From a virus (Duplodnaviria > Heunggongvirae > Uroviricota > Caudoviricetes), in IMG/VR virus record IMGVR_UViG_2778261674_000018, positions 1 through 20,121 of that record: 20,121 nt of DNA; one strand, given 5' to 3'. The position numbers and the translations under genes were made by a program. Numbering within the stretch: the stretch's first letter is position 1; each line of letters begins with the position of its first letter. This document shows, one piece after another, positions 1-20,121 of the stretch. Below the pieces are notes generated by a model. It saw only the letters and a program-made list of their open reading frames with translations, was not told the origin of the DNA and did not search any database.

Positions 1-210
1 ATGAAATTTGATGACTATCTGGATAAAATGTCACTTCTGGTGAATGAAGGAAAGCTCGAACCTGATATTTTAAGCAAAATGCGAGATGCTGCACCGAAAT
101 TAATTGACTTTGCTAAGTCGTTTGACCCAAACTCAAAGGAAAAGATTAAAATACTTACAGATACTTCTAATTTAATTTATGATTTGTTCGGGGTTAAATC
201 GGCGAAATAA
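1..210 (+). CDS. Hypothetical protein; may be the 3' part of a gene starting left of the window
   Basis: Open frame ending at 210 and followed by a hairpin terminator. The ATG at position 1 may be coincidental. AT-rich; no recognisable motif. Confidence 0.35.
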   Translation: MKFDDYLDKMSLLVNEGKLEPDILSKMRDAAPKLIDFAKSFDPNSKEKIKILTDTSNLIYDLFGVKSAK

Positions 211-247
211 TATGTGAAGTTCTTCGATGGTATGGAAGGCATTACAT

Positions 248-280
248 AAAAGAACCTAATACTTATTGGGTTCTTTTTTC
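248..280 (+). terminator. Rho-independent terminator
   Basis: Stem aaagaacc / ggttcttt with an 11-nt loop, followed by a T-run (gggttcttttttc). Confidence 0.5.
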
Positions 281-931
281 TTCTATCAGTGCCATTAGCA
301 GGAAGAGATATCACCGGAGTTTAATGTGTGATTTTTTATTTATCGTCGAACCTGGATTGTTTATCATTGTCCTTAACAAGGCTAACGGCTAATAAGATTA
401 TTTCCATCACTTCGTGAGAGCTTCATGCCTTGATTTGATCTCAATTTTCTTTTGCAATGAGACAGGCGCTTCCTGTTGTTATGGTATAGTACCCCGCTAT
501 TGAGCCTCCTGAACAGTGATGCTGAATAACATAACCCAATGATATATCGATAAAATAATCTCTACATTTGAAAATGCACGGTAATTCTGAAATGCAAAAA
601 ATCAACCAAACCAGCGCAATGCCTGAAAAAACTGACGTTCACTGGAGTGGTCGGTTTAGCGTTGCACCAATGCTCGATAGGATGTATCGTTGTTGAAAAA
701 CAAGTAGTTATATACTCTGTGGGAGCCTATTGGGAACCTGTTATTCTTAGAAAGCATCATTTGCTCATCACTTCAATTGACCATGATTAAAGCCAGCTAT
801 AAACTTGACAAACAAGGTAACTGGTTGCTTAGGCCTAAGTGGGCAAACCATAAGAAGCTCATGTTGGTGATGAAGCAACCCATGAAGTATCGAGAATAAT
901 TACAAAGTTCACTATCTTTGAGGTTTCTTAT

Positions 932-1504
932 ATGTTTTGCGAAGAAAAAGTAGCTCAAATGGCTGCATACCTACTTCTTAAGCGAGGTGGGCGCATGGCA
1001 TATCTGAAATTGATGAAGCTGCTCTATCTGTCTAACCGCAAGTCGATTTTGAAGCATGGCAGGATGATCGGCGAAGATAGCCTTTACTCTATGAAATTTG
1101 GTCCGGTCATGTCGAATACGCTGAACTTGATTCGTGGTAAGGCTGAAGGCATTGGTGACTACTGGTACAACTTGATAGAGACGAACGGGCATGATGTGTT
1201 GTTGCGTTCAGATCCGAGGGAAATGGATGCAGACGAGGTCTTTGATGAGTTGAGCCGTGCAGATATCCGGATTTTAGATGAAATCTATTCTCTGTATGGG
1301 CATATGAACCGATTTGATCTCGCAAACATGACGCATTTAGAAAGCGTTTGTCCAGAGTGGCACAATCCTGGCAATTCTCGTAAGCCTATAGACCTGAAAG
1401 AAATGCTGATCAGTGAGGGTAAAAGCGAGGATGAGGCTAATCGTATAATTGGCAAAATGGAAGAATCTCAGAAACTTAAGGAATTTTCTTTGCAATTATC
1501 ATGA
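932..1504 (+). CDS. Panacea/DUF4065-like (SocA/GepA-type) putative antitoxin
   Basis: 190 aa. The N-terminus (AQMAAYLL...YLKLMKLLYL...KFGPVMSN) matches my recollection of the DUF4065 pattern (KLxKLLYxx ... GPV). GAGG sits 8 nt upstream of the ATG. The stop overlaps the next start (ATGA at 1501-1504). AT-rich relative to the phage backbone. Confidence 0.55.
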   Translation: MFCEEKVAQMAAYLLLKRGGRMAYLKLMKLLYLSNRKSILKHGRMIGEDSLYSMKFGPVMSNTLNLIRGKAEGIGDYWYNLIETNGHDVLLRSDPREMDADEVFDELSRADIRILDEIYSLYGHMNRFDLANMTHLESVCPEWHNPGNSRKPIDLKEMLISEGKSEDEANRIIGKMEESQKLKEFSLQLS

Positions 1505-1920
1505 CGGATTATCAGCCATACAGGAAAGGAACTGTGCTTGCCCCAACTGGGCCATGCAATCATCTTCATGTGATTTGTAATGATCCTGTTTATTACCCCG
1601 TTAACGATTGTTATTGTGTTTTAGTTGTTAATATTTCTAGTATCAAGGATGGTGTCCCCCACGATCCGTCTTGCGTCTTGAATTCTGGTGATCATCGCTT
1701 TATCAAGCATCCAAGTTATGTTGTTTACGCTGAAGCTATAATTTGGCGAGTGGATAACATGGTTAGAAAGCAGCGATCGGGTGAGATTTCTGTTCATGAT
1801 GATATGCCAGAAGCTACATTCAATAGAATTCTGGACGGTTTTGATATATCTGATGAAGTTACGCCAAAGAACCTTAAATTTAAAAATAAATATTGCGTAT
1901 CATCTATTGATGATGAGTAA
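1501..1920 (+). CDS. Unknown 139-aa protein, translationally coupled to the Panacea-like gene; putative toxin/effector partner
   Basis: ATGA start/stop overlap with the upstream gene. Very AT-rich. Cys/His-containing N-terminus (PTGPCNHLHVICND); I do not recognise a family. Confidence 0.5.
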   Translation: MTDYQPYRKGTVLAPTGPCNHLHVICNDPVYYPVNDCYCVLVVNISSIKDGVPHDPSCVLNSGDHRFIKHPSYVVYAEAIIWRVDNMVRKQRSGEISVHDDMPEATFNRILDGFDISDEVTPKNLKFKNKYCVSSIDDE

Positions 1921-1959
1921 ACAACAGGAATTTTTTCGGTATAGCTTCTGGAGTTTTCT

Positions 1960-2133
1960 ATGGAAGATCAAAAAGCAACCAAGCCACAGGTTAAGTTCGA
2001 CACAATGAAAGCATTCGCAGGTATGGGGGCTGCTGTTGAAGTTCTGATGAAGGCTGTTCCTAATGCGTTCACTCACGCTACTGTCTCTGGTAAAGAGCAG
2101 CAGGGTAAGCTTCGTCGTCGCAAAGCAGCATGA
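1960..2133 (+). CDS. Small 57-aa hypothetical protein
   Basis: Below the 60-aa cut-off of the ORF track; I translated it by hand (MEDQKATKPQVKFDTMKAFAGMGAAVEVLMKAVPNAFTHATVSGKEQQGKLRRRKAA). GGAG lies 6 nt upstream of the ATG and a strong terminator follows directly. Confidence 0.4.
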   Translation: MEDQKATKPQVKFDTMKAFAGMGAAVEVLMKAVPNAFTHATVSGKEQQGKLRRRKAA

Positions 2134-2180: not shown

Positions 2181-2462
2181 TTAGTGATGTTCTTTGCCCT
2201 TCTGTTTGACTGTTCTGACCTGTTCCCACTCGATACGTCCTTCTTCTCGCCTTTTGTCTATGTATTCCGCAAGATCCTGAATATTGATGCAACGTTTTGC
2301 TTTTTGTGATGTGCCGATGCGATATGTTGGAACGGGCAACTTACAAGCGTTTGCTTTTGCTTCTGCCGTGGCTGGACTCATACCAAAGTACTTTTGGCTA
2401 ACTGCTGAGAGTTCAATGTTTGGGGTATTGAATTCAGCCATCAGTAAAAACAAGGTGTTCAT
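2181..2462 (-). CDS. PrtN-family DNA-binding protein (pyocin-activator-like / excisionase-like)
   Basis: MNTLFLLMAEF...YFGMSPATAEAKANACKLPVPTYRIGTSQKAKRCINIQDLAEYID resembles PrtN-family prophage proteins. Start chosen at the internal ATG preceded by GGAG with a 6-nt spacer; the ORF track starts 9 codons earlier. Confidence 0.6.
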   Translation of the reverse strand: MNTLFLLMAEFNTPNIELSAVSQKYFGMSPATAEAKANACKLPVPTYRIGTSQKAKRCINIQDLAEYIDKRREEGRIEWEQVRTVKQKGKEHH

Positions 2463-2498
2463 AATTTTCTCCATCAAAACCGGCTGCACCCGGGAAAA

Positions 2499-3071
2499 TT
2501 ATAATTCTGTGCTGGTGGCAGGAATTAATTTCTGCCAGATAGCGGAAACATATTTTGCCTGATGACGGGCATCGGCCAGGGCGTTGTGCCGTTCGCCATC
2601 GAAAGGCATGTCCATTTTTGGGTCGAATCCGATGGAACGCCCAAGCGTAACGATCGTGCGCGCATCGTGATCATTCCAGTACGCCCATGGGCAGATTTGT
2701 CCTGCTCGCTCATAAGCTCCGCGTAAAATTACGTTGTCGAAGTTGGCTCCGTTACCCCAGACTTTTAAATATTTCGTATTGTCTGCGTGCCGATTAATGA
2801 AATGGCTCAGTTCAGAGAGTGCATCGCTGATCGACAAAGTATCATCAATACAGATTGCAGCTCGTGCTTCAGGGCTTTGTTTCAACCACCACAGGATGGT
2901 GTCGCCGTCAGGTGTGGCCCCTTGCTCCATAGCACTGTCCAAGCTGACAGCCGCATAGAATTCTTGTCCGATGTCTCCGGTTTCTGGGGTGAAGAACACT
3001 GCGCCAATAGAAACGATCGGCGCATCCTTATTTTTCCCCATCGTCTCAAGGTCGATCATTAAGTTGTTCAT
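2499..3071 (-). CDS. DEDD-type 3'-5' exonuclease (DnaQ-like fold)
   Basis: Motifs MIDLETMG (Exo I D/E), WGNGANFD (Exo II), H...D (Exo III). Start at MNNLMIDLE is preceded by AGGAGG; the track ORF extends 28 codons upstream without support. The start overlaps the stop of the upstream gene (TGATG). Confidence 0.7.
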   Translation of the reverse strand: MNNLMIDLETMGKNKDAPIVSIGAVFFTPETGDIGQEFYAAVSLDSAMEQGATPDGDTILWWLKQSPEARAAICIDDTLSISDALSELSHFINRHADNTKYLKVWGNGANFDNVILRGAYERAGQICPWAYWNDHDARTIVTLGRSIGFDPKMDMPFDGERHNALADARHQAKYVSAIWQKLIPATSTEL

Positions 3072-3352
3072 CACTTTACCTCCTGCGGCGGTTCTTGTAT
3101 TGGCATCGGCTGAGCTATATATAGCGGCTGAACATACCAGCCCTTTGATAACCAACTGTCAGCAACGTTTTTACTTCTGGTTATTGCCGGAATACCTAAG
3201 CCATTGTCTGAATGCAGCCATGCCACCGGATCCTCTTCCAGCGATGCCAGAGCAATTTCATAAGCACGGCGCTCAACATTGTCTCGCACGTCCATGCTGC
3301 TGATTCGTTCTTTGATTTCTTTAATCAGTTCTTTATCGGTAAATGTGGTCAT
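3071..3352 (-). CDS. Hypothetical phage protein (93 aa)
   Basis: Translationally coupled at both ends within the leftward operon; no recognisable motif. Confidence 0.45.
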   Translation of the reverse strand: MTTFTDKELIKEIKERISSMDVRDNVERRAYEIALASLEEDPVAWLHSDNGLGIPAITRSKNVADSWLSKGWYVQPLYIAQPMPIQEPPQEVK

Positions 3353-3714
3353 TATGCTCCAGCCTCCGGTGCTTTTGGCATTACAGCCCAGTGAGTGATA
3401 TTGACGTTTTCAAGGTCCCCGACCTGAAATGTCCACTGCCATTCTCCGGTTTCTTTTTGCCCCCATGTATACCAGAGAGAACGCCAGCCAATCAGCCAGC
3501 CTTCTCCATTAGCATCAAATAACAGAATACTTTCGTTCGCTGGCGGCAGTTCAGCTGACACTGGTATTACTTTGTTTTCCAGTGCTGCACATTTAGCTTC
3601 AAGCGCATCAAATTTACGCACCAGGTACTCAGCATTTGTTTCGTTCACTTTCAGATCTCGCGGTACACATTTCCCGCGAAGAAACCCTTCCATTTCGAAA
3701 ACATTCATGCGCAT
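3352..3714 (-). CDS. DUF551-like phage protein
   Basis: The C-terminal Trp-rich segment ending ...ITHWAVMPKAPEA matches the DUF551 C-terminal signature (THW-MPLPEPP) as I recall it. GGAG lies 8 nt upstream of the ATG. Confidence 0.5.
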   Translation of the reverse strand: MRMNVFEMEGFLRGKCVPRDLKVNETNAEYLVRKFDALEAKCAALENKVIPVSAELPPANESILLFDANGEGWLIGWRSLWYTWGQKETGEWQWTFQVGDLENVNITHWAVMPKAPEAGA

Positions 3715-4241
3715 TTGCGTAACTCCGATAACTCGTTAAAACGTTCCATAAACATCCCATAGGCATGGCCTGGCGACAGTGGAATAACTTTGAACATCTC
3801 TGTTGCCGGGATACCTTCCAGTACAGGCCAGAAAGAGCCATCATCAAGCCCGAGATCGCGGCGTTCGGTTGCCAGCATGATGAGATCGGCATATTTCACG
3901 GGCGTACTCATAACCGGGGGTAACCCGTATTTCTCACGGATTACGGCGTCTATTTTTTCTTCCATCCGTTTATAGTCAGGAAGAAGGCGTTTCAGTGGTG
4001 CGGGAATGTCCTGGCAATACGCTTCTGTTGCATCATGCATTAACGCTTCAAAAGCAAATTCGTGCGGTACCAGCTGGCTGCAAAGCACCGCATGTTGGGC
4101 GACGCTGTAGAAGTGTGAAAGATGTCCTGCAAAGCGACAGATATTTGAAAGGGAAACCGCGATATCGTTAATAACGATGTCATCTTTATTTATCCTGTCA
4201 TAATAAAAATGCTTCCCGGAAAAAGTTTTAATAAATGACAT
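3705..4241 (-). CDS. HD-domain phosphohydrolase (YfbR/YfdR-like nucleotidase family)
   Basis: H...H and MHDATEAY motifs (HD-domain metal ligands). Start at MSFIKTF is preceded by GGAG; the track ORF extends 28 codons further upstream. Confidence 0.6.
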   Translation of the reverse strand: MSFIKTFSGKHFYYDRINKDDIVINDIAVSLSNICRFAGHLSHFYSVAQHAVLCSQLVPHEFAFEALMHDATEAYCQDIPAPLKRLLPDYKRMEEKIDAVIREKYGLPPVMSTPVKYADLIMLATERRDLGLDDGSFWPVLEGIPATEMFKVIPLSPGHAYGMFMERFNELSELRKCA

Positions 4242-4330
4242 TTTGTTCTCCACGTATATGCGCTGCACCGCGCTGAATTTTGATTGCAGCAATCCAGCCC
4301 ATTTGACATGGGATGATTGCTGCAATTTTT

Positions 4331-5248
4331 TTAAGTTGTTGGATTTTGGCTTTTATCTTCTTTGTAAGAAAGAAGGTCACACATCAAATTAACTACCTTG
4401 CTGAATTGGAAAAGGTCAGTGCCAGTCTGATGACGCCACTGGAATGCTTTATCATCTTCATCATTAAATGTCTGAGATTGAGTATTGATGCGCGAAAAAT
4501 GGAAATTTTCGGTAAGAATGAAGGTCACACCGCAACCGGATAACTCCATTTTATCAGCAGTGAAACTACTACTAAGGCTATCGGCCAGTTCGCTTTGAAT
4601 TGACTCATGCTCAGCTGAGTAGCGAATAATTTCCTTTTGATCTGCGTAGCGTGATAGCTGAATATAATTCCCGACAGTGAATCCTTCAAATGCATTGGCT
4701 GCACCATTGATGTAGTTCTTCAGGCGTGTAGTCAGTCCATTCTTGATATCACTGATGTTGATTGTTTCTGTTTTCACTGAACCGACAACCTTAATCAGCA
4801 TTGCGCATACCATACCGGCTATTATTTTATTGGTTGTGTTGATTACCAATAATTTCTCATCAGTGCTGTACAATGCAAGAATCAGCGTAGACTTAACAAA
4901 TGCCTGTTTGCATAGATCTACTCGTACGTTATCAATAATGGCCAGTCGTTCGGCACGCTTTAATTTATTCCCGGACATATTTTCGATTGTTTGGATTCGA
5001 GAATTAGCTTCTTTCATGACGACATGTCGGGGAATTATTTTCTGATCATGACGGATTACCATTGCGTACCCACCAGATATCGGAGTTACCAGTTCACCAG
5101 TGACAGGATTCTCTACAAAAGAGGACCGTGAAAATTCTGTTTCCCCGATTTCAGAATAAGGGAGTTCGAGAAGATGCCCTTCAATAGCCTGTATACTAGG
5201 TAATGTTGCTCGGTACACAATTGCGTTACGAAATTTTGGTAATTTCAT
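4331..5248 (-). CDS. rdgC: RdgC-like recombination-associated protein
   Basis: MKLPKFRNAIVYRATLP... aligns with the RdgC N-terminus (MLWFKNLMVYRL...); about 306 aa, typical RdgC length. Start at the internal ATG with a GAGGAAAA RBS; the upstream 50 codons of the track ORF are probably not translated. Confidence 0.65.
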   Translation of the reverse strand: MKLPKFRNAIVYRATLPSIQAIEGHLLELPYSEIGETEFSRSSFVENPVTGELVTPISGGYAMVIRHDQKIIPRHVVMKEANSRIQTIENMSGNKLKRAERLAIIDNVRVDLCKQAFVKSTLILALYSTDEKLLVINTTNKIIAGMVCAMLIKVVGSVKTETINISDIKNGLTTRLKNYINGAANAFEGFTVGNYIQLSRYADQKEIIRYSAEHESIQSELADSLSSSFTADKMELSGCGVTFILTENFHFSRINTQSQTFNDEDDKAFQWRHQTGTDLFQFSKVVNLMCDLLSYKEDKSQNPTT

Positions 5249-5569
5249 TCTATTTTCCTCTGCACAAGATATTAGTTTCTCCACAAAACAGAGAAGAACA
5301 CCTGCGGTGGCAGCCGCCCGGATGGATTGGGTTATGAGCCCGTCGTCCGGTGATGCTCTTCTCTGTTTTGTAAAAAGAGCGGTACCAGCCGGAAGCAAGT
5401 GTACAAACTGGTACCGCCAAAGCAGTGGCTGTTGTGGTGACCGGTGCTGATCTCCGGCTTGCGGTTATTTCAGACTCTCACGGGCATTTAATTGCCCCGC
5501 CGAACAGCTCTTTTCCGCAATAGCTGCAATGTCTTTCGCGCATCAGCCTGCGCATTCACCACAACTCTA

Positions 5570-5691: not shown

Positions 5692-6345
5692 TCAAAAATC
5701 CATTATTACTTGTTTGACAAGACCAACTATTCTGCAGTTCTCACCGCATTCAATAGTTTTATAGTTAGGATTTAGTGGGACGAGATACCTGTTCGGCCAG
5801 TCCTCAACAAATTTTTTGAGTGTCGCTTCTTGCCCACCATTGATATGGGCAACAACGATTTTTCCGTTAATACACTCTGTATCAATAATATCTGGCTCTA
5901 CGATAACGATAGAACCTTCTGGTATCGATGGTGAGCCGAGGGGATTGGTCATTGAATCACCACGGACCCGTAGTGCAAATGCCATTTCTGATACAAGGGC
6001 GGTAGTATAAACCCACTCTTCAGCATCTTCTTTCCTGACACCAGGCTCCGTCATTGTCCATGAACCCGCCTGAACCCACGAGATGAGGGGGACTTTTTTA
6101 ACTGCGAATATTTCAGGTTTTAGATTTATCTTTGGTTCAGGCGAGCCTTTTCCGCTAACAAGCCACAGAGGATCGCATTTAAGTGCGTTGGCTAGGGCTT
6201 GAAGGTTGGCTCCATTTGGTTGGTAGTCGTCCTTTTCCCATCCAGTAACCGTGACACGGTTCACACCAGTCAAATCAGCCAGTGCTTGTTGTGTCAGGTT
6301 CAGTTCTTTTCGCCTTTGGCGAATACGATCACTCATGTTCATCAT
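5692..6345 (-). CDS. cI: CI-like prophage repressor (HTH plus S24/LexA-type autopeptidase domain)
   Basis: N-terminal HTH (LTQQALADLTGVNRVTVTGWE), Ala-Gly cleavage site (VQAGSW), catalytic Ser in GDSM and a downstream Lys (LKKF). Sits between two operator clusters. The exact start among the MMNM codons is uncertain. Confidence 0.8.
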   Translation of the reverse strand: MMNMSDRIRQRRKELNLTQQALADLTGVNRVTVTGWEKDDYQPNGANLQALANALKCDPLWLVSGKGSPEPKINLKPEIFAVKKVPLISWVQAGSWTMTEPGVRKEDAEEWVYTTALVSEMAFALRVRGDSMTNPLGSPSIPEGSIVIVEPDIIDTECINGKIVVAHINGGQEATLKKFVEDWPNRYLVPLNPNYKTIECGENCRIVGLVKQVIMDF

Positions 6346-6349
6346 GTAG

Positions 6350-6420
6350 GCAATCCTACCACATGCCAATGTAGGATTCTTGACATTGGCATGTTGGATA
6401 TCCTACATTTCTGCTTAACG
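6350..6420 (+). promoter_or_regulatory. OR operator cluster with rightward PR-like promoter (and presumed divergent PRM)
   Basis: TTGACA (6390-6395), 18-nt spacer, TACATT (6414-6419). Three palindromes around a GTAGGAT/ATCCTAC core. The block mirrors the PL block almost base for base. Confidence 0.6.
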
Positions 6421-13111: not shown

Positions 13112-13128
13112 TTTTGTGGAGAAAGTTG

Positions 13129-13506
13129 ATGCGTGATATTCAAATGGTTCTGGATCGTTGGGGAGCATGGGCGGCGAGTGATAGTTCAGGAGTAGACTAT
13201 TCTCCTATAGCTGCTGGGTTTAAAGGGCTTCTTCCCTATACAAGCAAAACACGTCAGGCATGTTCAGATAGTGATGCATTAATTATTGAAGGTTGTCTTG
13301 CTCGTCTAAGGCAAAAAAGGCCGGACGAACATTCGCTTCTTGTTGCCCATTACCTATACGGTATCTCTAAAAGAAAGCTCGCCAAGGCTCGTAAAAAGGA
13401 TGAGAAACTAATACGCATTGAGATACAGATGGCTGAGGGGTTTATTGATGGCTGCCTATCGATGCTGGAAATTAGTCTAGAGATGGACCCCGAAATTAAA
13501 GATTGA
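13129..13506 (+). CDS. Q-like late-gene antiterminator (small Phage_antitermQ type)
   Basis: MRDIQMVLDRWGAWAASD...IAAGFKGLLP resembles the short Q proteins of Salmonella/E. coli lambdoid prophages. It is the last early-right gene before the late region. RBS GTGGAGA. Confidence 0.6.
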   Translation: MRDIQMVLDRWGAWAASDSSGVDYSPIAAGFKGLLPYTSKTRQACSDSDALIIEGCLARLRQKRPDEHSLLVAHYLYGISKRKLAKARKKDEKLIRIEIQMAEGFIDGCLSMLEISLEMDPEIKD

Positions 13507-13512
13507 TTATTG

Positions 13513-13537
13513 AAGCCCGATTACTCGGGCTTTTGTT
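13513..13537 (+). terminator. Rho-independent terminator after Q
   Basis: aagcccga-ttac-tcgggctttt; overlaps the stop codon of the convergent gene on the - strand. Confidence 0.55.
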
Positions 13538-14540
13538 CCACATCTCGAACATAGAGAATTACTGCTGACTTAATGTCACCATCGACGTGTTTTGCGTTAA
13601 TGCTCAAATGTACAGGCTTTCTTTCCCACTCAGCTCGCTGCAATGCTTCTTTGTTTCCGGATTCATCAAGGAAAACATCCTGAACTACGCAGGTTAGACG
13701 TTGGTCGGTATCTACGCGTCGGACCTTAACTTTGAAACTCTCTGGGTCAGTATTATTGACTTCTTCAATTCGGTAAATACCATCAATCCTCATTTCTGAT
13801 GAACGTCTACGAGCATTCGTAACCAACTCTTTCGCCATTTCAGAATCAATAGTAACGCCATCAATTTGAGCGTTATCTGAACGCACAAAGGATTTGACCA
13901 TTTGGGTTTTAGCGTCATACGACATACGGTCCATGTTATCGAGAAGTGGTTTTTCCGCAATCATTTCTGAAATAACCCGCAGGCGTTTAGTTTCTTGCTC
14001 ACTCATGATCTGCATAGTCCGGAGATGTTCTTTCTCTCCATCCTTAGCAATTTCTGCAAGGCGAATATCTTTACGGTTGTCCAAGAACCGTTTAAATACT
14101 GTTACTCCGCCCCAGATGACTGCTGCGCCGAGAACAGTAAACATGATCTCAGTTGCGTTCATTTTACCAACAAGTTCCTGTGTGAGTTTGGTTAAAAAGC
14201 CATCAATGTTGATTTCTACTATTGAAGAACCCTGTTCTACCGTAACTTCTATTTCTAGGGCATCAAGTTCTTCTTTGGTCAGTTTGCGGACGTCAGGGAC
14301 ACCGTACTTGGCAAGGGCATATGATTTGTTGATTTGAGCTTGCATTTCAACAAATCCCTTCATAACTGAAGGTGTTAGCGATCTGTTGAATTTTTCACCG
14401 GTTAATCTGATGGTAAGGTTTGGCCATCCGTTGAAACTTAAACTGTCAGGTAAACCATAACCATCAAGATAGCTTTCAAGCAAATCGAAGGCTTGCTGCT
14501 CAGATTCAATGTCTACATGAATCTCATCAAACTTATCCAA
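13521..14540 (-). CDS. Membrane-anchored protein of unknown function (339 aa, one central TM helix)
   Basis: Long ORF, AT-rich, convergent to Q. Hydrophobic segment IMFTVLGAAVIWGGVTVF flanked by charged residues (KMNATE ... KRFLDNRKD). No family recognised. Confidence 0.6.
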   Translation of the reverse strand: MDKFDEIHVDIESEQQAFDLLESYLDGYGLPDSLSFNGWPNLTIRLTGEKFNRSLTPSVMKGFVEMQAQINKSYALAKYGVPDVRKLTKEELDALEIEVTVEQGSSIVEINIDGFLTKLTQELVGKMNATEIMFTVLGAAVIWGGVTVFKRFLDNRKDIRLAEIAKDGEKEHLRTMQIMSEQETKRLRVISEMIAEKPLLDNMDRMSYDAKTQMVKSFVRSDNAQIDGVTIDSEMAKELVTNARRRSSEMRIDGIYRIEEVNNTDPESFKVKVRRVDTDQRLTCVVQDVFLDESGNKEALQRAEWERKPVHLSINAKHVDGDIKSAVILYVRDVEQKPE

Positions 14541-14712
14541 AAATATGTCCTCATTCTAAGCCAATTGTCACCGTGAGGTTTGGCAACGCCTGCTTTATTT
14601 TTCGTTTTAAGCTGTGTGGCAAAAAAATAATGGAAAAACAGATAAAAATCACTAACGCGGTCCGCATTTTCTAGATTACTGTGTTAAGAGTGGTTACTTC
14701 GCCACACAACTT

Positions 14713-14740
14713 AAACCCGCCGCTGAGCGGTTTTTTTGTA
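14713..14740 (+). terminator. Candidate tR'-like terminator preceding the late genes
   Basis: Short GC stem (ccgc-tga-gcgg) followed by TTTTTTT. An upstream inverted repeat tgtgtggc (14614) / gccacaca (14701) could fold the intervening segment. Confidence 0.4.
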
Positions 14741-14835
14741 CCTGTAAACTTGGTGCAGCACAGTAAACACGCTGGTGGTCGTGAATACTGACTTTTTATC
14801 TTGCTGGCTTTTTATACAAGAGTTATTGGTATGTC

Positions 14836-15063
14836 ATGTTAACCAGAAGGGAAAAAGACATGCTAAAACAGCAAGATATGACAGAAACCGCCGCCGCAGT
14901 CCTTCATTTCTTACCTGCTGACAAGTGGGTAACGCCACGCATGATGACGAGAACTACCGGAGTAAGCGAAGCCCGGTGCCAGTTAATACTGACTCAGTTA
15001 GTTCTGGCGGGTCTGGCGAAGGATAACGGCGGGTACGGGAATAAATTCAGACGCTGCCAGTAA
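14836..15063 (+). CDS. Hypothetical 75-aa protein (alternative start at 14860)
   Basis: First ORF after the candidate tR'; no recognisable family. Confidence 0.4.
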   Translation: MLTRREKDMLKQQDMTETAAAVLHFLPADKWVTPRMMTRTTGVSEARCQLILTQLVLAGLAKDNGGYGNKFRRCQ

Positions 15064-15213
15064 TGGCGGTTTCCTGCTGTGAAAATGGGCGGCTGGTGGG
15101 TGTTGGTAGCACCTGCCAGCCATTCGCTCATGCTTACTGGTCACAAGCGAACCACGGCCCACTGCTTTAGCGCAAAAGCAGAGTGAGCCTACCAGAGTTA
15201 CGCTTACTGATCC

Positions 15214-16266
15214 ATGAAAAATACTGTAAAAATAAACAGTGTTGATTTAATCAACGCTGATTGCCTGCATTTTATTCAGTCCCTGCCTGATGATTCCATT
15301 GACCTGATTGTTACCGATCCGCCGTACTTCAAGGTGAAACCCAACGGTTGGGACAATCAGTGGAAAGGGGACGAAGATTACCTTAAGTGGCTGGACCACT
15401 GTCTGGCCCAGTTCTGGCGGGTGTTAAAACCTGCCGGAAGCCTTTACCTGTTCTGTGGGCATCGCCTGGCATCTGATATTGAGATCATGATGCGTGAACG
15501 TTTCAACGTGCTTAACCATATCATCTGGGCGAAGCCGTCCGGACGTTGGAATGGGTGTAATAAAGAAAGTCTGCGCGCATATTTTCCTGCCACAGAGCGC
15601 GTTCTGTTTGCTGAACATTACCAGGGGCCATATCGTGGCAAAAGTGACGGCTATGCGGCAAAAGAAAGGGAACTCAAACAGCACATAATGGCACCGCTGA
15701 TATCGTATTTCAGGGATGCTCGTGCCGAACTGGGTATAACGGCAAAACAAATTGCCGAAGCCACAGGTAAGAAAAATATGGTTTCCCACTGGTTTGGTGC
15801 CAGTCAGTGGCAGTTGCCGAATGAGGCTGACTATCGGAAGTTACAGGCACTGTTTTCCCGTATAGCGGCAGAGAAGTTTCAGGAACAACAACTGGAACAA
15901 CCACACCACCAGCTGGTGGCATCTTATGATTCACTAAATCGCAAATATTCTGAATTGCTGGATGAGTTTAAATCTCTCCGGCGCTATTTCTCCGTATCAG
16001 TCTCCGTGCCTTATACCGATGTCTGGATGCATAAACCCGTTCAGTTCTACCCGGGTAAACATCCGTGTGAGAAACCTGCGGATATGCTCCGGCAAATAAT
16101 CAATGCCAGTAGTCGACCTGGTGATCTGGTTGCTGATTTTTTTATGGGATCCGGTTCCACAATAAAAGCAGCAATGGCGCTGGGGCGTCGGGCCTTAGGT
16201 GTTGAGCTTGAGTCAGAGCGGTTTAACCAGACAGTGAAAGAGATAAACGAGCTGGTGGGGAAATAA
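15214..16266 (+). CDS. DNA methyltransferase, beta-class amino-MTase (N6-A or N4-C)
   Basis: Motif IV DPPY (VTDPPYF) lies N-terminal to motif I FxGxGS (FFMGSGST), the circular permutation typical of beta-class MTases. Confidence 0.75.
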   Translation: MKNTVKINSVDLINADCLHFIQSLPDDSIDLIVTDPPYFKVKPNGWDNQWKGDEDYLKWLDHCLAQFWRVLKPAGSLYLFCGHRLASDIEIMMRERFNVLNHIIWAKPSGRWNGCNKESLRAYFPATERVLFAEHYQGPYRGKSDGYAAKERELKQHIMAPLISYFRDARAELGITAKQIAEATGKKNMVSHWFGASQWQLPNEADYRKLQALFSRIAAEKFQEQQLEQPHHQLVASYDSLNRKYSELLDEFKSLRRYFSVSVSVPYTDVWMHKPVQFYPGKHPCEKPADMLRQIINASSRPGDLVADFFMGSGSTIKAAMALGRRALGVELESERFNQTVKEINELVGK

Positions 16267-17045: not shown

Positions 17046-17509
17046 GCAGAGTAACCGCGATTATCTCCGCTCTGGTTATCTGCATCATCGTCTGCCTGTC
17101 GTGGGCGGTCAATCATTACCGTGATAACGCCATCGCCTACAAAGAACAGCGTGATAAAAAAGTCAGTGAGCTGAAGCAGGCGACCGCCACCATCGCTGAC
17201 ATGCAGCAGCGTCAGCGTGATGTTGCTGCGATCGATGCAAAATACACGAAGGAGTTAGCCGATGCGAAAACTGAAAATGAAACTCTGCGCGCTGATGTTG
17301 CCGCTGGTCGTAAGCGCCTGCGGGTCAATGCCAGTTGCTCCGCAGCCGTGCGTGAAGCCACCGGACCCACCAGCATGGATAATGCAACCAGCCCCCGACT
17401 GGCAGACACCGCTGAACGGGATTATTTCACCCTCAGAGAACGGTTGATGACGATGCAGAAGCAACTGGAAGGGGCGCAGGAATATATCCGCACCCAGCGC
17501 ATTAAGTAG
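17042..17509 (+). CDS. Rz: Rz inner-membrane spanin (i-spanin)
   Basis: [37 protein letters not shown] and ...[28 protein letters not shown] are nearly identical to lambda Rz. Confidence 0.9.
17262..17447 (+). CDS. Rz1: Rz1 outer-membrane lipoprotein spanin (o-spanin), embedded in Rz in the +1 frame
   Basis: [22 protein letters not shown]...[30 protein letters not shown] matches lambda Rz1 (lipobox, Pro-rich); wholly contained within Rz. Confidence 0.85.
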
Positions 17510-17530
17510 CTGGAGAAAAAACACGAATCT

Positions 17531-17893
17531 GTGGTTTTTACTGAGCGCGGTGTACACGGTGGAACATATGGCGGGAAGTTTGTTGCTTATGATTATGCAG
17601 CATGGCTAAACCCCGGATTTAAATATGCAGCCTATAAAGTCCTGGATGACTACTTCACCGGAGAACTTCAGCATCGCAACAGCTTAAGTGCGCAGCTCAA
17701 TATGAAGTGTCATGAGTTTGATCAGAAAAAAGATATGGCGAGCTTCTGTGGACAAGGGCTGGCGGCATGGCGCTATACGAAGCCAGTGTTGGTCGCTGAG
17801 ATTAACTCCCTGGCTAACCAGCTGCAGATAACGATCCCCGGGCTGTCCGGTATTTGCCGGTATGAAATTACCGGAAGGCGCGGTCGTTACTGA
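17531..17893 (+). pseudogene. 5'-truncated KilA-N/Bro-N-like remnant (GTG start; possibly a functional truncated ORF)
   Basis: ERGVHGGTYGGKFVAYDYAAWLNPGFKYAAYKVL parallels the C-terminal half of the KilA-N domain in the intact gene at 11305 ([26 protein letters not shown]), but the N-terminal half is absent. The ORF is in the same frame as Rz and begins 7 codons after the Rz stop. Confidence 0.4.
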
Positions 17894-18346
17894 GTAAGAG
17901 CAGGCATTACAGCAGCCCTTCACTGAGGGGCTGCGATAATGTGAGGAATAAAAAACCGGCAGGGGAAATCCATTGAAGATTTGCCGGTGGCAAAAGATGG
18001 CCATGCTTTTAACCTTAGTAGCAGAGCTACGGAGTTCAACAACGACCGTCGCCGTTATCTTGCTGAAAGGCGTTTCAATGATTTTCATCAATTTATTCAT
18101 CAGCAATGGTGATAATCACTCTCATTTTGGCGGGTCCTTCCGGTGGGGTGGCCTGCCACGGGGCGGGAGCGTCGCGGAAAAAGGCTAGTTTTTGAAATTT
18201 CATTCGTCATCACCACTGCTGTAATTGATTGATATTACAGTAGTTTTATTTTTGCAGTGTCGATTTTGATTGTTTTTTGTTCATCACTAACACCGTTTGC
18301 CTAAAGTTGTTCGCAAGATGCATGTTTAAAACATTCTGGAGCGGGT

Positions 18347-18841
18347 ATGGATCGAGAGTTAAAAAATCTGACGCTGAATATCAGTCAACTGGCGGCACTG
18401 TCAGGTGTACATCGCCAGACTGCTGCGGCAAGGCTGCAAAATCTACCCGTTGCAGGGGGGCATGAAAGCAACCTCAAGCTTTATCGGGTGGTTGATATTG
18501 TGTCGGCATTTCTGGCATTGCCACCGCCGGTTGCAGAAGGCGAAATGGACGCGCATGAGCGCAAAGCCTGGTATCAGTCTGAACGTGAGCGTCTTAAGTT
18601 CGAACAGGAAACGGCACAACTCATTCCGGCCAGTGATGTCAGACGGGAGTTTGCCATCTGGGCAAAAGCGGTCGTGCAGGTGCTGGAGACATTACCGGAT
18701 ATTCTGGAACGTGACTGCGGTCTGCAGCCTGCCGCTGTGAGCCGTGTTCAGTCCATTATTGATGATCTGCGCGATCAGATAGCCCTGCGGGTGACTGAAG
18801 CAGGTGCGGATGATGAGGAGGAATTACAGCAGGAGGAGTAA
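18347..18841 (+). CDS. Terminase small subunit
   Basis: N-terminal HTH-like segment (LTLNISQLAALSGVHRQTAAARL), acidic C-terminus, and the stop overlaps the large-terminase start (TAATG). Confidence 0.65.
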   Translation: MDRELKNLTLNISQLAALSGVHRQTAAARLQNLPVAGGHESNLKLYRVVDIVSAFLALPPPVAEGEMDAHERKAWYQSERERLKFEQETAQLIPASDVRREFAIWAKAVVQVLETLPDILERDCGLQPAAVSRVQSIIDDLRDQIALRVTEAGADDEEELQQEE

Positions 18842-20121
18842 TGCTGAATCAGGAAACCGCAAAGGCAGCACGAACCGATTCAGGTTATATCCTTCGCGCA
18901 CCGAGACGAATGCGGGTTGCTGATGCCGTTGCTCAGTATATGCGGGTGCCCATGGGGGCAGGGAACTCAGTCCCGTGGGATCCGCTGGTGGCACCGTATG
19001 TTATTGAGCCGATGAACTGCCTGGCCTCGCGTGAATACGACGCAGTGATATTTGTTGGCCCGGCACGAACCGGCAAGACTATCGGCCTGATTGACGGCTG
19101 GGTGATTTACAACGTGATTTGCGATCCTGCTGATATGCTGATCATTCAGATGACGGAGGAAAAAGCCCGCGAACACTCCAAAAAACGACTCGCCAGAACG
19201 TTTCGCGTCAGCCCGGAAGTGGTCAGTCGCCTGAGTCCGAACAAAAATGACAACAACGTTTATGACAGAACATTCCTTGCTGGCAACTACCTGAAAATCG
19301 GCTGGCCGTCAGTCAATATCATGTCCTCATCAGATTATAAATGCGTCGCGCTGACGGATTATGACCGTTTTCCGGAAGATATTGATGGCGAGGGGGATGC
19401 CTTCTCTCTTGCCTCAAAACGTACCACCACATTTATGTCCAGCGGTATGACGTTGGTGGAGAGTTCCCCCGGCAGGGATGTGAAGGATGTGAAATGGCGA
19501 CGGACTTCACCGCATGAGGCTCCACCAACCACGGGGATCCTGTCGCTCTATAACCGTGGTGATCGCCGTCGCTGGTACTGGCCCTGTCCACACTGTGGTG
19601 AGTATTTTCAGCCCTGCGGCGATGTGGTTGCTGGTTTCCGTGATATTACCGATCCCGTGCTGGCAAGTGAGGCGGCTTATATTCAGTGTCCTTCCTGTTC
19701 AGGACGGATTATGCCTGAACACAAACGTGAGCTGAACGGACGTGGGGTCTGGTTGCGGGATGGTGAATCCATCAATGCGGATGGCAGTCGTTATGGTGAT
19801 CCCCGACGCTCACGTATTGCGTCATTCTGGATGGAGGGTCCGGCAGCTGCTTACCAGACACTCTCGCAACTCGTTTACAAACTGCTTACTGCAGAACAGG
19901 AATACGAGACAACCGGAAGTGAAGAAACACTCAGGGCGGTTATCAATACCGACTGGGGATTACCTTATCTTCCCCGTGCCAGCATGGAGCAACGAAAAAG
20001 TGAACTGCTTGAGCAGCGGGCAGAGCCAGTTCCTTCCCGCAGTGTGCCGGATGGCGTTAATTTCCTTGTGGCGACAGTGGATGTGCAGGCGGGACGTCAT
20101 CGCCGTTTTGTGGTTCAGGTA
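18841..20121 (+). CDS. Terminase large subunit, lambda gpA-like (3' end beyond the window)
   Basis: Hand-translated; not in the ORF track because no stop falls inside the window. Walker A-like VFVGPARTGKT, Cys motif WPCPHCGEY...CPSCSG, open to the window end. Confidence 0.8.
   Translation, partial: MLNQETAKAARTDSGYILRAPRRMRVADAVAQYMRVPMGAGNSVPWDPLVAPYVIEPMNCLASREYDAVIFVGPARTGKTIGLIDGWVIYNVICDPADMLIIQMTEEKAREHSKKRLARTFRVSPEVVSRLSPNKNDNNVYDRTFLAGNYLKIGWPSVNIMSSSDYKCVALTDYDRFPEDIDGEGDAFSLASKRTTTFMSSGMTLVESSPGRDVKDVKWRRTSPHEAPPTTGILSLYNRGDRRRWYWPCPHCGEYFQPCGDVVAGFRDITDPVLASEAAYIQCPSCSGRIMPEHKRELNGRGVWLRDGESINADGSRYGDPRRSRIASFWMEGPAAAYQTLSQLVYKLLTAEQEYETTGSEETLRAVINTDWGLPYLPRASMEQRKSELLEQRAEPVPSRSVPDGVNFLVATVDVQAGRHRRFVVQV

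Follow-up and report, generated by a model that had tools for sequence, protein, structure and literature searches.

The window analysed here is a stretch of 20,121 nucleotides from a lambdoid prophage of Escherichia coli (positions 1 to 20,121 of IMG/VR virus record IMGVR_UViG_2778261674_000018). Between the gene for the antiterminator Q and the late operon it carries one gene that runs against its neighbours and encodes a protein of 339 amino acids (WP_000357056.1). This gene is real and under strong purifying selection, and its family is mobile among three classical prophage cargo slots, one of which is the slot of rexAB. Some anti-phage role of the protein is reasonably probable. The preferred reading, held tentatively, is that of an accessory ('moron') protein of the prophage, produced in the lysogen and acting as a membrane-anchored, single-chain abortive-infection or exclusion protein.

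Compared with homologues of 85–98% protein identity, the ratio of non-synonymous to synonymous substitution rates is only 0.014–0.041, and one homologue that is 98.5% identical in protein has a synonymous divergence of 0.30. An exhaustive profile search of a library of 1.84 billion proteins returned 1,522 clusters at the 50% identity level with E values of up to 0.001; for 591 the value is below 1e-30. The family build is constant at ~335 residues, and nearly all of the 150 clusters listed from this search fall between 320 and 350. With a word-indexed search, full-length relatives were traced down to 26% identity; they belong to Enterobacterales, Pseudomonas, Acinetobacter and Burkholderiales, are all labelled 'hypothetical', and none has a precomputed Pfam domain. 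Halomonadaceae, Pasteurella and metagenomes are also represented, and a tblastn search of a phage collection added a relative in Moraxella phage Mcat17. Within E. coli the gene is present in 86 of 5,426 complete genomes, always chromosomal, as a single copy, and at least 99% identical.

The protein matches PHROG 6191, a family of unknown function, over its full length (E 1.6e-152). Searches of Pfam, NCBIfam and the Protein Data Bank (PDB), with the single sequence and with the family profile, gave nothing above threshold, and the 5,027 defence-protein models of PADLOC-DB v2.0.0 gave no match at E up to 10. An earlier reading of this DNA from its letters alone (the original prediction) could not place the product in any known family, and after these searches that still holds. 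Some weak matches below cutoff were not relied on, namely GpJ FNIII-A (E 0.002), DUF7947 in the C-terminal region (9 of 37 members) and MetS-like matches on the hydrophobic helix. A literature search for WP_000357056.1, PHROG 6191 or DUF7947 found no papers, the sole mention found being a table of the DefensePredictor study described below.

Gene neighbourhoods were compared over 103 collected loci, of which a scan of genome contigs contributed only 6; very divergent members lie on short contigs that were uninformative in this respect. At 51 of the 103 loci the gene is convergent with a Q gene of the same family, at a distance of 5–23 nt, with a DUF968 gene before Q and a variable other side. 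At about 26 loci it lies directly 3' of a repressor (cI) gene on the same strand, with gaps of 31–147 nt. These post-repressor homologues occur in Salmonella, Morganella/Providencia, Pseudomonas, Moraxella phage Mcat17 and E. coli phage phi458, where the member is full-length but distant (hhalign 98%) and follows cI by 25 nt. The identity of the upstream protein as an S24-peptidase repressor was confirmed in six different cases, in four of which a helix-turn-helix (HTH) domain is recognisable as well, and in another set the upstream proteins are 155-residue repressors of the Gifsy type. In loci of the L074 type, a repressor of 237 residues with HTH and S24 domains, which we take to be lambda-CI-like, is followed by the relative and then by the N antiterminator (PF25694). 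The same cI–N interval is filled by rexA–rexB in lambda, and in the model phage the post-cI cargo slot is co-transcribed with the repressor. The third position is found in prophages of P. aeruginosa: there the homologue is flanked by tail genes I and J and shares their strand. No conserved same-strand partner gene was found across the 103 loci. In the present window the gene is outside the immunity region, with cI at 5692–6369 and the gene at 13521–14540. One Acinetobacter locus (L010, 5308–9193) has on one strand a repressor, an HSDR_N-domain protein, a 100-residue open reading frame (ORF), the homologue, and a GGDEF protein, a string which may be a larger cargo cluster of the immunity region.

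The slot between Q and the late promoter of the present Q family is a hotspot of antisense cargo. Sister E. coli prophages with Q genes of 85–96% nucleotide identity carry other antisense genes at the same place, before the same late genes (lower rows of Table 1), and in a more distant sister, Eco_23-2678 (Q 74% identical), the place is free of antisense genes. Because the same flanks carry different cargo or none, the 339-residue gene is accessory, as the original prediction had proposed in assigning it to a moron hotspot between Q and the lysis genes. The gene is nevertheless no recent insertion: the identities of Q and of the gene are correlated (r 0.83 over the 51 loci, which are not independent), and this co-divergence means that it has long travelled with the Q module as a passenger. 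Taken as a set, the relatives after cI, the I–J tail slot in Pseudomonas and the variable Q slot point to an exclusion function expressed in the lysogen.

For the cargo of the three sister slots PADLOC gave no convincing match. DUF6731, found in one of them, is the Pfam domain given for a known-defence cluster under the label RexAB~RexA (Table S5, PMC13092281). Lambda RexA and RexB gave no BLASTP match to the DUF6731 pair, and lambda RexA scores E 1e-97 on PF15969, not on DUF6731, so that the Rex-likeness of this cargo goes no further than the label in Table S5. The picture is still reciprocal: the family takes the place of rexAB after cI, and a pair with this unconfirmed Rex label takes that of the family after Q.

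The protein has also been flagged in print. WP_000357056.1 appears as a 'Predicted novel defense gene' among 1,041 uncharacterised E. coli clusters in Table S10 of the DefensePredictor study (2026, PMC13092281), with a mean log-odds of 6.55 (range 4.51–9.74) against a cutoff of 4. The inputs of that machine-learning predictor are embeddings of the gene and four neighbours, GC content and orientation (PMC13092281). Four signature peptides of the protein are absent from the supplementary tables of PMC13092281 that were examined, including the complete Table S8 with its 42 validated systems. The DefensePredictor cluster and PHROG 6191 are the same family, and neither source gives a function, structure, mechanism or test. 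The flag itself was known already; what is new is an uncharacterised family within a known functional kind.

The structure of the protein was modelled with AlphaFold2 from a 37-sequence alignment (predicted local distance difference test, pLDDT, 83; predicted template-modelling score, pTM, 0.65), and secondary structure was assigned by DSSP. The model has four parts: an N-terminal domain, a hydrophobic helix, a helical linker and a C-terminal oligonucleotide/oligosaccharide-binding (OB) fold. The original prediction described two soluble domains split by a single hydrophobic helix. The central helix with folded parts on either side stands, and the part that follows it is better described as a linker plus an OB fold. 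It is the N-terminal domain that holds the best-conserved motifs in the alignment (GEKFxxSxTPSVMKGF, Q67, Y74-A75 and G104-S105). Its net charge ranges from -3 to -12 across the family, with a mean of -7, and no known fold neighbour was found for it. Neither a signal peptide nor a lipobox was detected in the protein.

The segment IMFTVLGAAVIWGGVTVF, to which the original prediction had pointed, is the only strongly hydrophobic stretch of the protein, with a Kyte-Doolittle mean over 19 residues of 1.77 against 0.66 for the next best. Seven of its 18 residues are Gly, Ala or Thr. It forms the first part of a long continuous helix (residues 129–163 in the model), and is directly followed by the basic stretch KRFLDNRKDIR. 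A hydropathy maximum near residue 130 is common to the 37 aligned members and to 142 divergent representatives (23–44% identity), and the Wimley-White octanol sum is favourable in 37 of 37 aligned members. Across the family the segment is weak (15–22 uncharged residues; median 19-residue Kyte-Doolittle mean 1.7). The positive-inside rule mildly favours a cytoplasmic location for the C-terminal half. On these predicted features the protein is probably a bitopic membrane protein.

The OB fold has five strands, the third and fourth being separated by the usual helix. A fold search with the full model returned only generic OB folds, a search of BFVD only uncharacterised phage proteins with low template-modelling (TM) scores, and a profile search with the OB domain for other architectures only fragments of the same family. 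A metagenome-assembled genome of an uncultured Treponema (L022, 5884–6495) encodes a protein of 203 residues that matches only family residues 42–179, that is, the N-terminal domain and the hydrophobic helix; the front half may thus exist without the OB fold.

According to the preferred reading, the protein would be anchored in the inner membrane by its single Gly/Ala-rich helix, with the basic juxtamembrane stretch, the helical linker and the OB fold on the cytoplasmic side and the acidic N-terminal domain on the opposite side. A soluble domain would recognise a product of the infecting phage, either nucleic acid or protein. Recognition would then alter the packing of the weakly hydrophobic helices, the membrane would be de-energised or genome entry blocked, and the infection would fail. 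Output would be kept low by the conserved TTG start codon (see below), which fits a product that must stay scarce. A more ambitious version of this scheme is improbable: the protein would represent a new and widespread class of one-polypeptide transmembrane phage sensor-effectors, a functional one-gene replacement of RexA plus RexB. The acidic domain, of novel fold, and the OB domain on opposite sides of the membrane would then couple phage detection to the helix, and the Gly/Ala-rich helices would assemble a membrane lesion or plug the entry route.

Similarities to RexAB are seen in position, since relatives lie directly after cI on the same strand and, in the L074-type loci, before N, and in the combination of a soluble part with a membrane part (RexA with RexB, or the DUF6731 protein with its 147-residue partner in the sister Q slot). 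In contrast to RexAB, there is a single gene here rather than two, with one marginal putative span rather than four, and the copy in the window is outside the immunity region. A RexB-type four-span partner (PF15968) does not adjoin the gene, its neighbours being Q and late-operon ORFs. The protein does not match the RexA or RexB families of Pfam (PF15969, PF15968), and 37 relatives have no Pfam match. A second comparison is with two membrane-anchored abortive-infection proteins, PdpSau and AbiP; the latter is a nucleic-acid binder, while PdpSau has a predicted OB-fold-like region and changes membrane potential and permeability in infected cells (PMC10127798). The likeness consists in a single accessory gene on a mobile element, encoding one membrane helix (a putative one in the present protein) together with an OB-type or nucleic-acid-binding domain, and the PdpSau gene adjoins a lysis module. 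However, the helix of PdpSau and AbiP is N-terminal, whereas here it is central, following an acidic domain of 126 residues, and the N-terminus has no hydrophobic stretch. Unlike theirs, the C-terminal domain is not positively charged. A further set, P22 SieA, HK97 gp15, T4 Imm and Sp, and lactococcal Sie2009, resembles the protein, as it is pictured here, in being prophage-expressed, small-to-medium cargo proteins of the inner membrane. HK97 gp15 is encoded in the tail gene cluster, as are the Pseudomonas homologues. These entry-blocking superinfection-exclusion (Sie) proteins differ in domain build, and the 339-residue protein has no match to a named family in PHROGs or Pfam.

Several observations weigh against a membrane-anchored exclusion protein. 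For the hydrophobic segment a crude Hessa sum gives +0.5 to +6 kcal/mol, the uncharged stretch is only 15 residues long in many relatives, and 35% of the divergent members are under the Kyte-Doolittle threshold of 1.6; so marginal a helix might instead be buried or serve oligomerisation. Over the family as a whole there is a modest positive-inside bias (3.5 vs 2.2 Lys plus Arg), and topology is ambiguous. An N-out orientation would entail the unusual export of an acidic N-terminal tail of 130 residues in the absence of a signal peptide. With a mean net charge of -0.2, the OB domain is not basic and lends no support to nucleic-acid binding. When the family profile was aligned by hhalign with lambda RexA and with PdpSau (phage 53 ORF016), the probabilities were 0.12% and 0.07%, respectively. 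The promoter search upstream of the gene turned up no convincing sigma-70 site in the window; the candidates TTGCCA and TAGAAT are 22 nt apart, and the only consensus match overlaps the ribosome-binding site. Very strong purifying selection, combined with co-divergence with Q, is atypical of a fast arms-race gene. As for the published flag, only 45% of tested DefensePredictor predictions were validated (PMC13092281), and because context and low GC are among the inputs, the score is not independent of the context arguments. The original prediction likened the architecture to membrane-acting abortive-infection or exclusion proteins. That comparison gains from the cargo status of the gene, the relatives after cI (including those in the rexAB slot) and the published prediction, and loses from a hydrophobic helix that is only marginal.

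One rival reading is a soluble oligomer that has the hydrophobic helix as its core and acts in the cytoplasm, through the OB fold, on nucleic acid or another protein. This is unlikely, even though the hydrophobic stretch is short, is marginal in many members and is confidently placed by AlphaFold2 inside a long continuous helix, and although it is unusual for a bacterial membrane protein to have a long N-terminal domain ahead of a single span. Hydrophobic character is kept at the exact position in 179 of 179 members examined, about two thirds of which have a Kyte-Doolittle value of at least 1.6, and besides the favourable octanol sums there is a conserved basic stretch after the helix, as at membrane interfaces. 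If the protein is in the inner membrane, it might have one periplasmic domain and exclude superinfecting phages at entry, blocking genome injection so that the cell survives, for example by binding tape-measure or ejection proteins or the inner-membrane entry channel. Such an entry block is rather unlikely: there is no homology to any known Sie protein, the N-terminal domain of 130 residues lacks a signal peptide, and the topology is ambiguous. The match to GpJ is below threshold and confined to 5 of 37 members, and the commonest slot outside E. coli is that of rexAB, which is tied to abortive infection rather than to entry block.

Two further explanations place the gene outside defence. As a lysogenic-conversion factor comparable to bor and lom, it would change host physiology or fitness (envelope stress, colonisation, biofilm, resistance to host factors). 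Its moron-like placement, with a shared terminator-like hairpin at the 3' end, would suit such a factor, as would its wide occurrence in animal pathogens and commensals, and a distant member is carried by prophage phi458, which influences biofilm formation and virulence according to the title of the report on it (PMC9701743). This explanation is quite improbable nonetheless, given a protein without signal peptide, lipobox or similarity to known conversion factors. Members in Acinetobacter, Moraxella, Burkholderiales, Halomonadaceae and metagenomes also mean that the family is not tied to one host niche, and the recurrent position after cI, together with the alternation with Rex-labelled cargo (the label being unconfirmed), better fits conflict between phages. 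A role in the phage's own lytic programme, via Q, is very unlikely. The gene might modulate late transcription or lysis timing, or be an antisense or roadblock element; in Enterobacterales it stays beside the same Q family and co-diverges with it, it lies between Q and conserved blocks that resemble a Q-responsive promoter, and purifying selection on it is very strong. However, the sisters with Q of 85–96% nucleotide identity carry unrelated cargo in its place and the one at 74% carries none, and homologues of other lineages are beside cI or within tail genes, with no Q nearby. A complete lysis cassette (holin, lysozyme, Rz/Rz1) is present downstream without any need to count this gene, the protein matches no holin, antiholin or spanin family in Pfam or PHROG, and homologues elsewhere are not near lysis genes.

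Should the protein prove to be a defence protein, it would add a large family of wide taxonomic range, whose domain build is new and whose N-terminal fold is without a solved relative, and the few known single-gene exclusion systems that act at the membrane would gain a member. The occurrence of the same protein in three prophage slots (post-cI, Q-to-late-promoter and tail cluster) would in that case amount to a natural experiment, and the other occupants of the Q slot (the NYN protein, the DUF6731 pair and the unnamed pairs) are further defence candidates.

Table 1. Coordinates of the 339-residue gene, its protein domains, the flanking elements and the cargo found at the equivalent place in sister prophages (window positions unless a locus is named)
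Feature	Position	Strand	Basis and remarks
Q antiterminator (PF06530)	13114..13506	+	Pfam E 2e-52; convergent; 14 nt between the stops of Q and the 339-residue gene
Hairpin common to the convergent Q and 339-residue genes	13513..13532		9-bp stem, -13.8 kcal/mol, overlaps stop; folding z -4.3 and -4.45
Coding sequence of the 339-residue protein	13521..14540	-	ORF list; stop TAA 13523-13521; RefSeq WP_000357056.1 'hypothetical protein'
C-terminal OB fold, residues 245-335	13536..13808	-	b1-b3, helix 296-306, b4-b5; RIDGxY and AEW motifs
Helical linker, residues 150-244	13809..14093	-	four to five helices and a small beta hairpin; MSxQET motif at ~179-184 (DSSP of AlphaFold2 model; alignment)
Hydrophobic helix IMFTVLGAAVIWGGVTVF, residues 132-149	14094..14147	-	putative single membrane span; Gly/Ala/Thr-rich; pLDDT about 90
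N-terminal alpha/beta domain, residues 1-126	14163..14540	-	acidic, net -10; GEKFxxSxTPSVMKGF and GSS motifs
Shine-Dalgarno GAGGA	14548..14552	-	7 nt upstream of TTG; GAGG and TTG kept across lineages of 100-61% identity
Conserved non-coding block 1, AAAAATCACTAACGCGGTCCGCA	14644-14666	+	contains palindrome GCGGTCCGC at 14656-14664
Conserved TAnnGT	14677-14682	+	between the two non-coding blocks
Conserved non-coding block 2, GTGTTAAGAGTGGTTAC...CTTAA	14681-14714	+	alignment of upstream regions
Terminator-like hairpin with T7 run, candidate tR'	14719..14737	+	terminator scan; sequence varies, structure kept in alignment
NYN-domain protein	L107 3891-4754	antisense	strain cS100a; equivalent to window 13521-14540
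DUF6731 protein and 147-residue partner with four hydrophobic segments	L108 3922-5321	antisense	strain NJS001
Two unnamed hypothetical proteins and IS2	L109 3915-4964	antisense	strain NDM2

The first in-frame ATG of the gene does not occur before residue 60, so the TTG at 14540–14538 must be the start codon. TTG and a strong GAGG are conserved from 100% down to 61% protein identity in lineages of both the Q and the cI context (the start regions compared include L009, L019, L046, L066, L070 and L083), while the Pseudomonas members have GTG instead. The maintenance of a rare start codon over such deep divergence suggests selection for a low translation output.

On the far side of the gene from Q there is an intergenic region of 295 nt, followed by an ORF of 75 residues (PHROG 331), a DNA methylase, lysozyme and Rz; on the Q side, a DUF968 gene precedes Q. 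RefSeq annotates no other minus-strand gene to the right of cro in identical or near-identical prophages, in agreement with the original prediction that this is the only gene of the right arm to be transcribed against the flow. An ORF of 140 residues on the minus strand (17684–18106) was considered as a second antisense gene and rejected, being unannotated in RefSeq and without a family match. The gene had also been described as distinctly AT-rich. Its GC content of 0.419 is indeed below that of the window (0.48) and of the DUF968 gene (0.557), but Q (0.438) and the intergenic region 14541–14835 (0.403) are similarly low, and since low GC is common to all three, the AT-rich unit consists of Q, the gene and the intergenic region together.

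The hairpin at the junction of the two convergent genes is followed on the plus strand by UUUUGUU and is terminator-like for transcripts from the Q side, while on the minus strand the U tract is poor. It should therefore prevent transcripts that come from the Q side from reading antisense into the gene. The two conserved non-coding blocks upstream of the gene (also cited as GCGGTCCGC/GTGTTAAGAGTGG) are both kept down to 69% protein identity, in alignments of 40 and 14 distinct upstream regions. Their pentamers NTAAG and CTTAN' co-vary between lineages (T/A, A/T, G/C). The region 14644–14714 is probably a Q-responsive late promoter or Q-binding region with a short leader, in which case the antisense gene would be lodged between Q and the target of Q. 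Homology to the late regions of the Stx2c, mEp460 and cdtI phages begins at the candidate tR' hairpin, and megablast boundaries fall at 14644, 14682 and 14714. Rfam gave no significant match in 13400–15300.

The segment 13400–14900 is 100% identical to a prophage of strain T16R, which lies beside tRNA-Thr near proA. When the T16R annotation was set against the ORFs of the window, a comparison of gene order without alignment, the left arm was seen to differ from window 2400–5400 (integrase versus exonuclease genes). Past the lysis genes (17500–20121), T16R has two antisense genes, HNH and a P27-type terminase, and the window a DUF1441 small terminase. As the gene orders differ around an identical segment, the module of Q and the 339-residue gene is one that is common to mosaic prophages. 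The late operon contains, between the late promoter region and the holin, a DNA methyltransferase gene (PF01555, 15214–16266), which is kept in the sister prophages whatever antisense cargo they carry. The left end of the window (1–2000) is low in GC (0.34–0.45) and has two ORFs on the same strand (932–1504 and 1501–1920) that match only the unknown-function PHROGs 1281 and 19071; it may be another cargo region.

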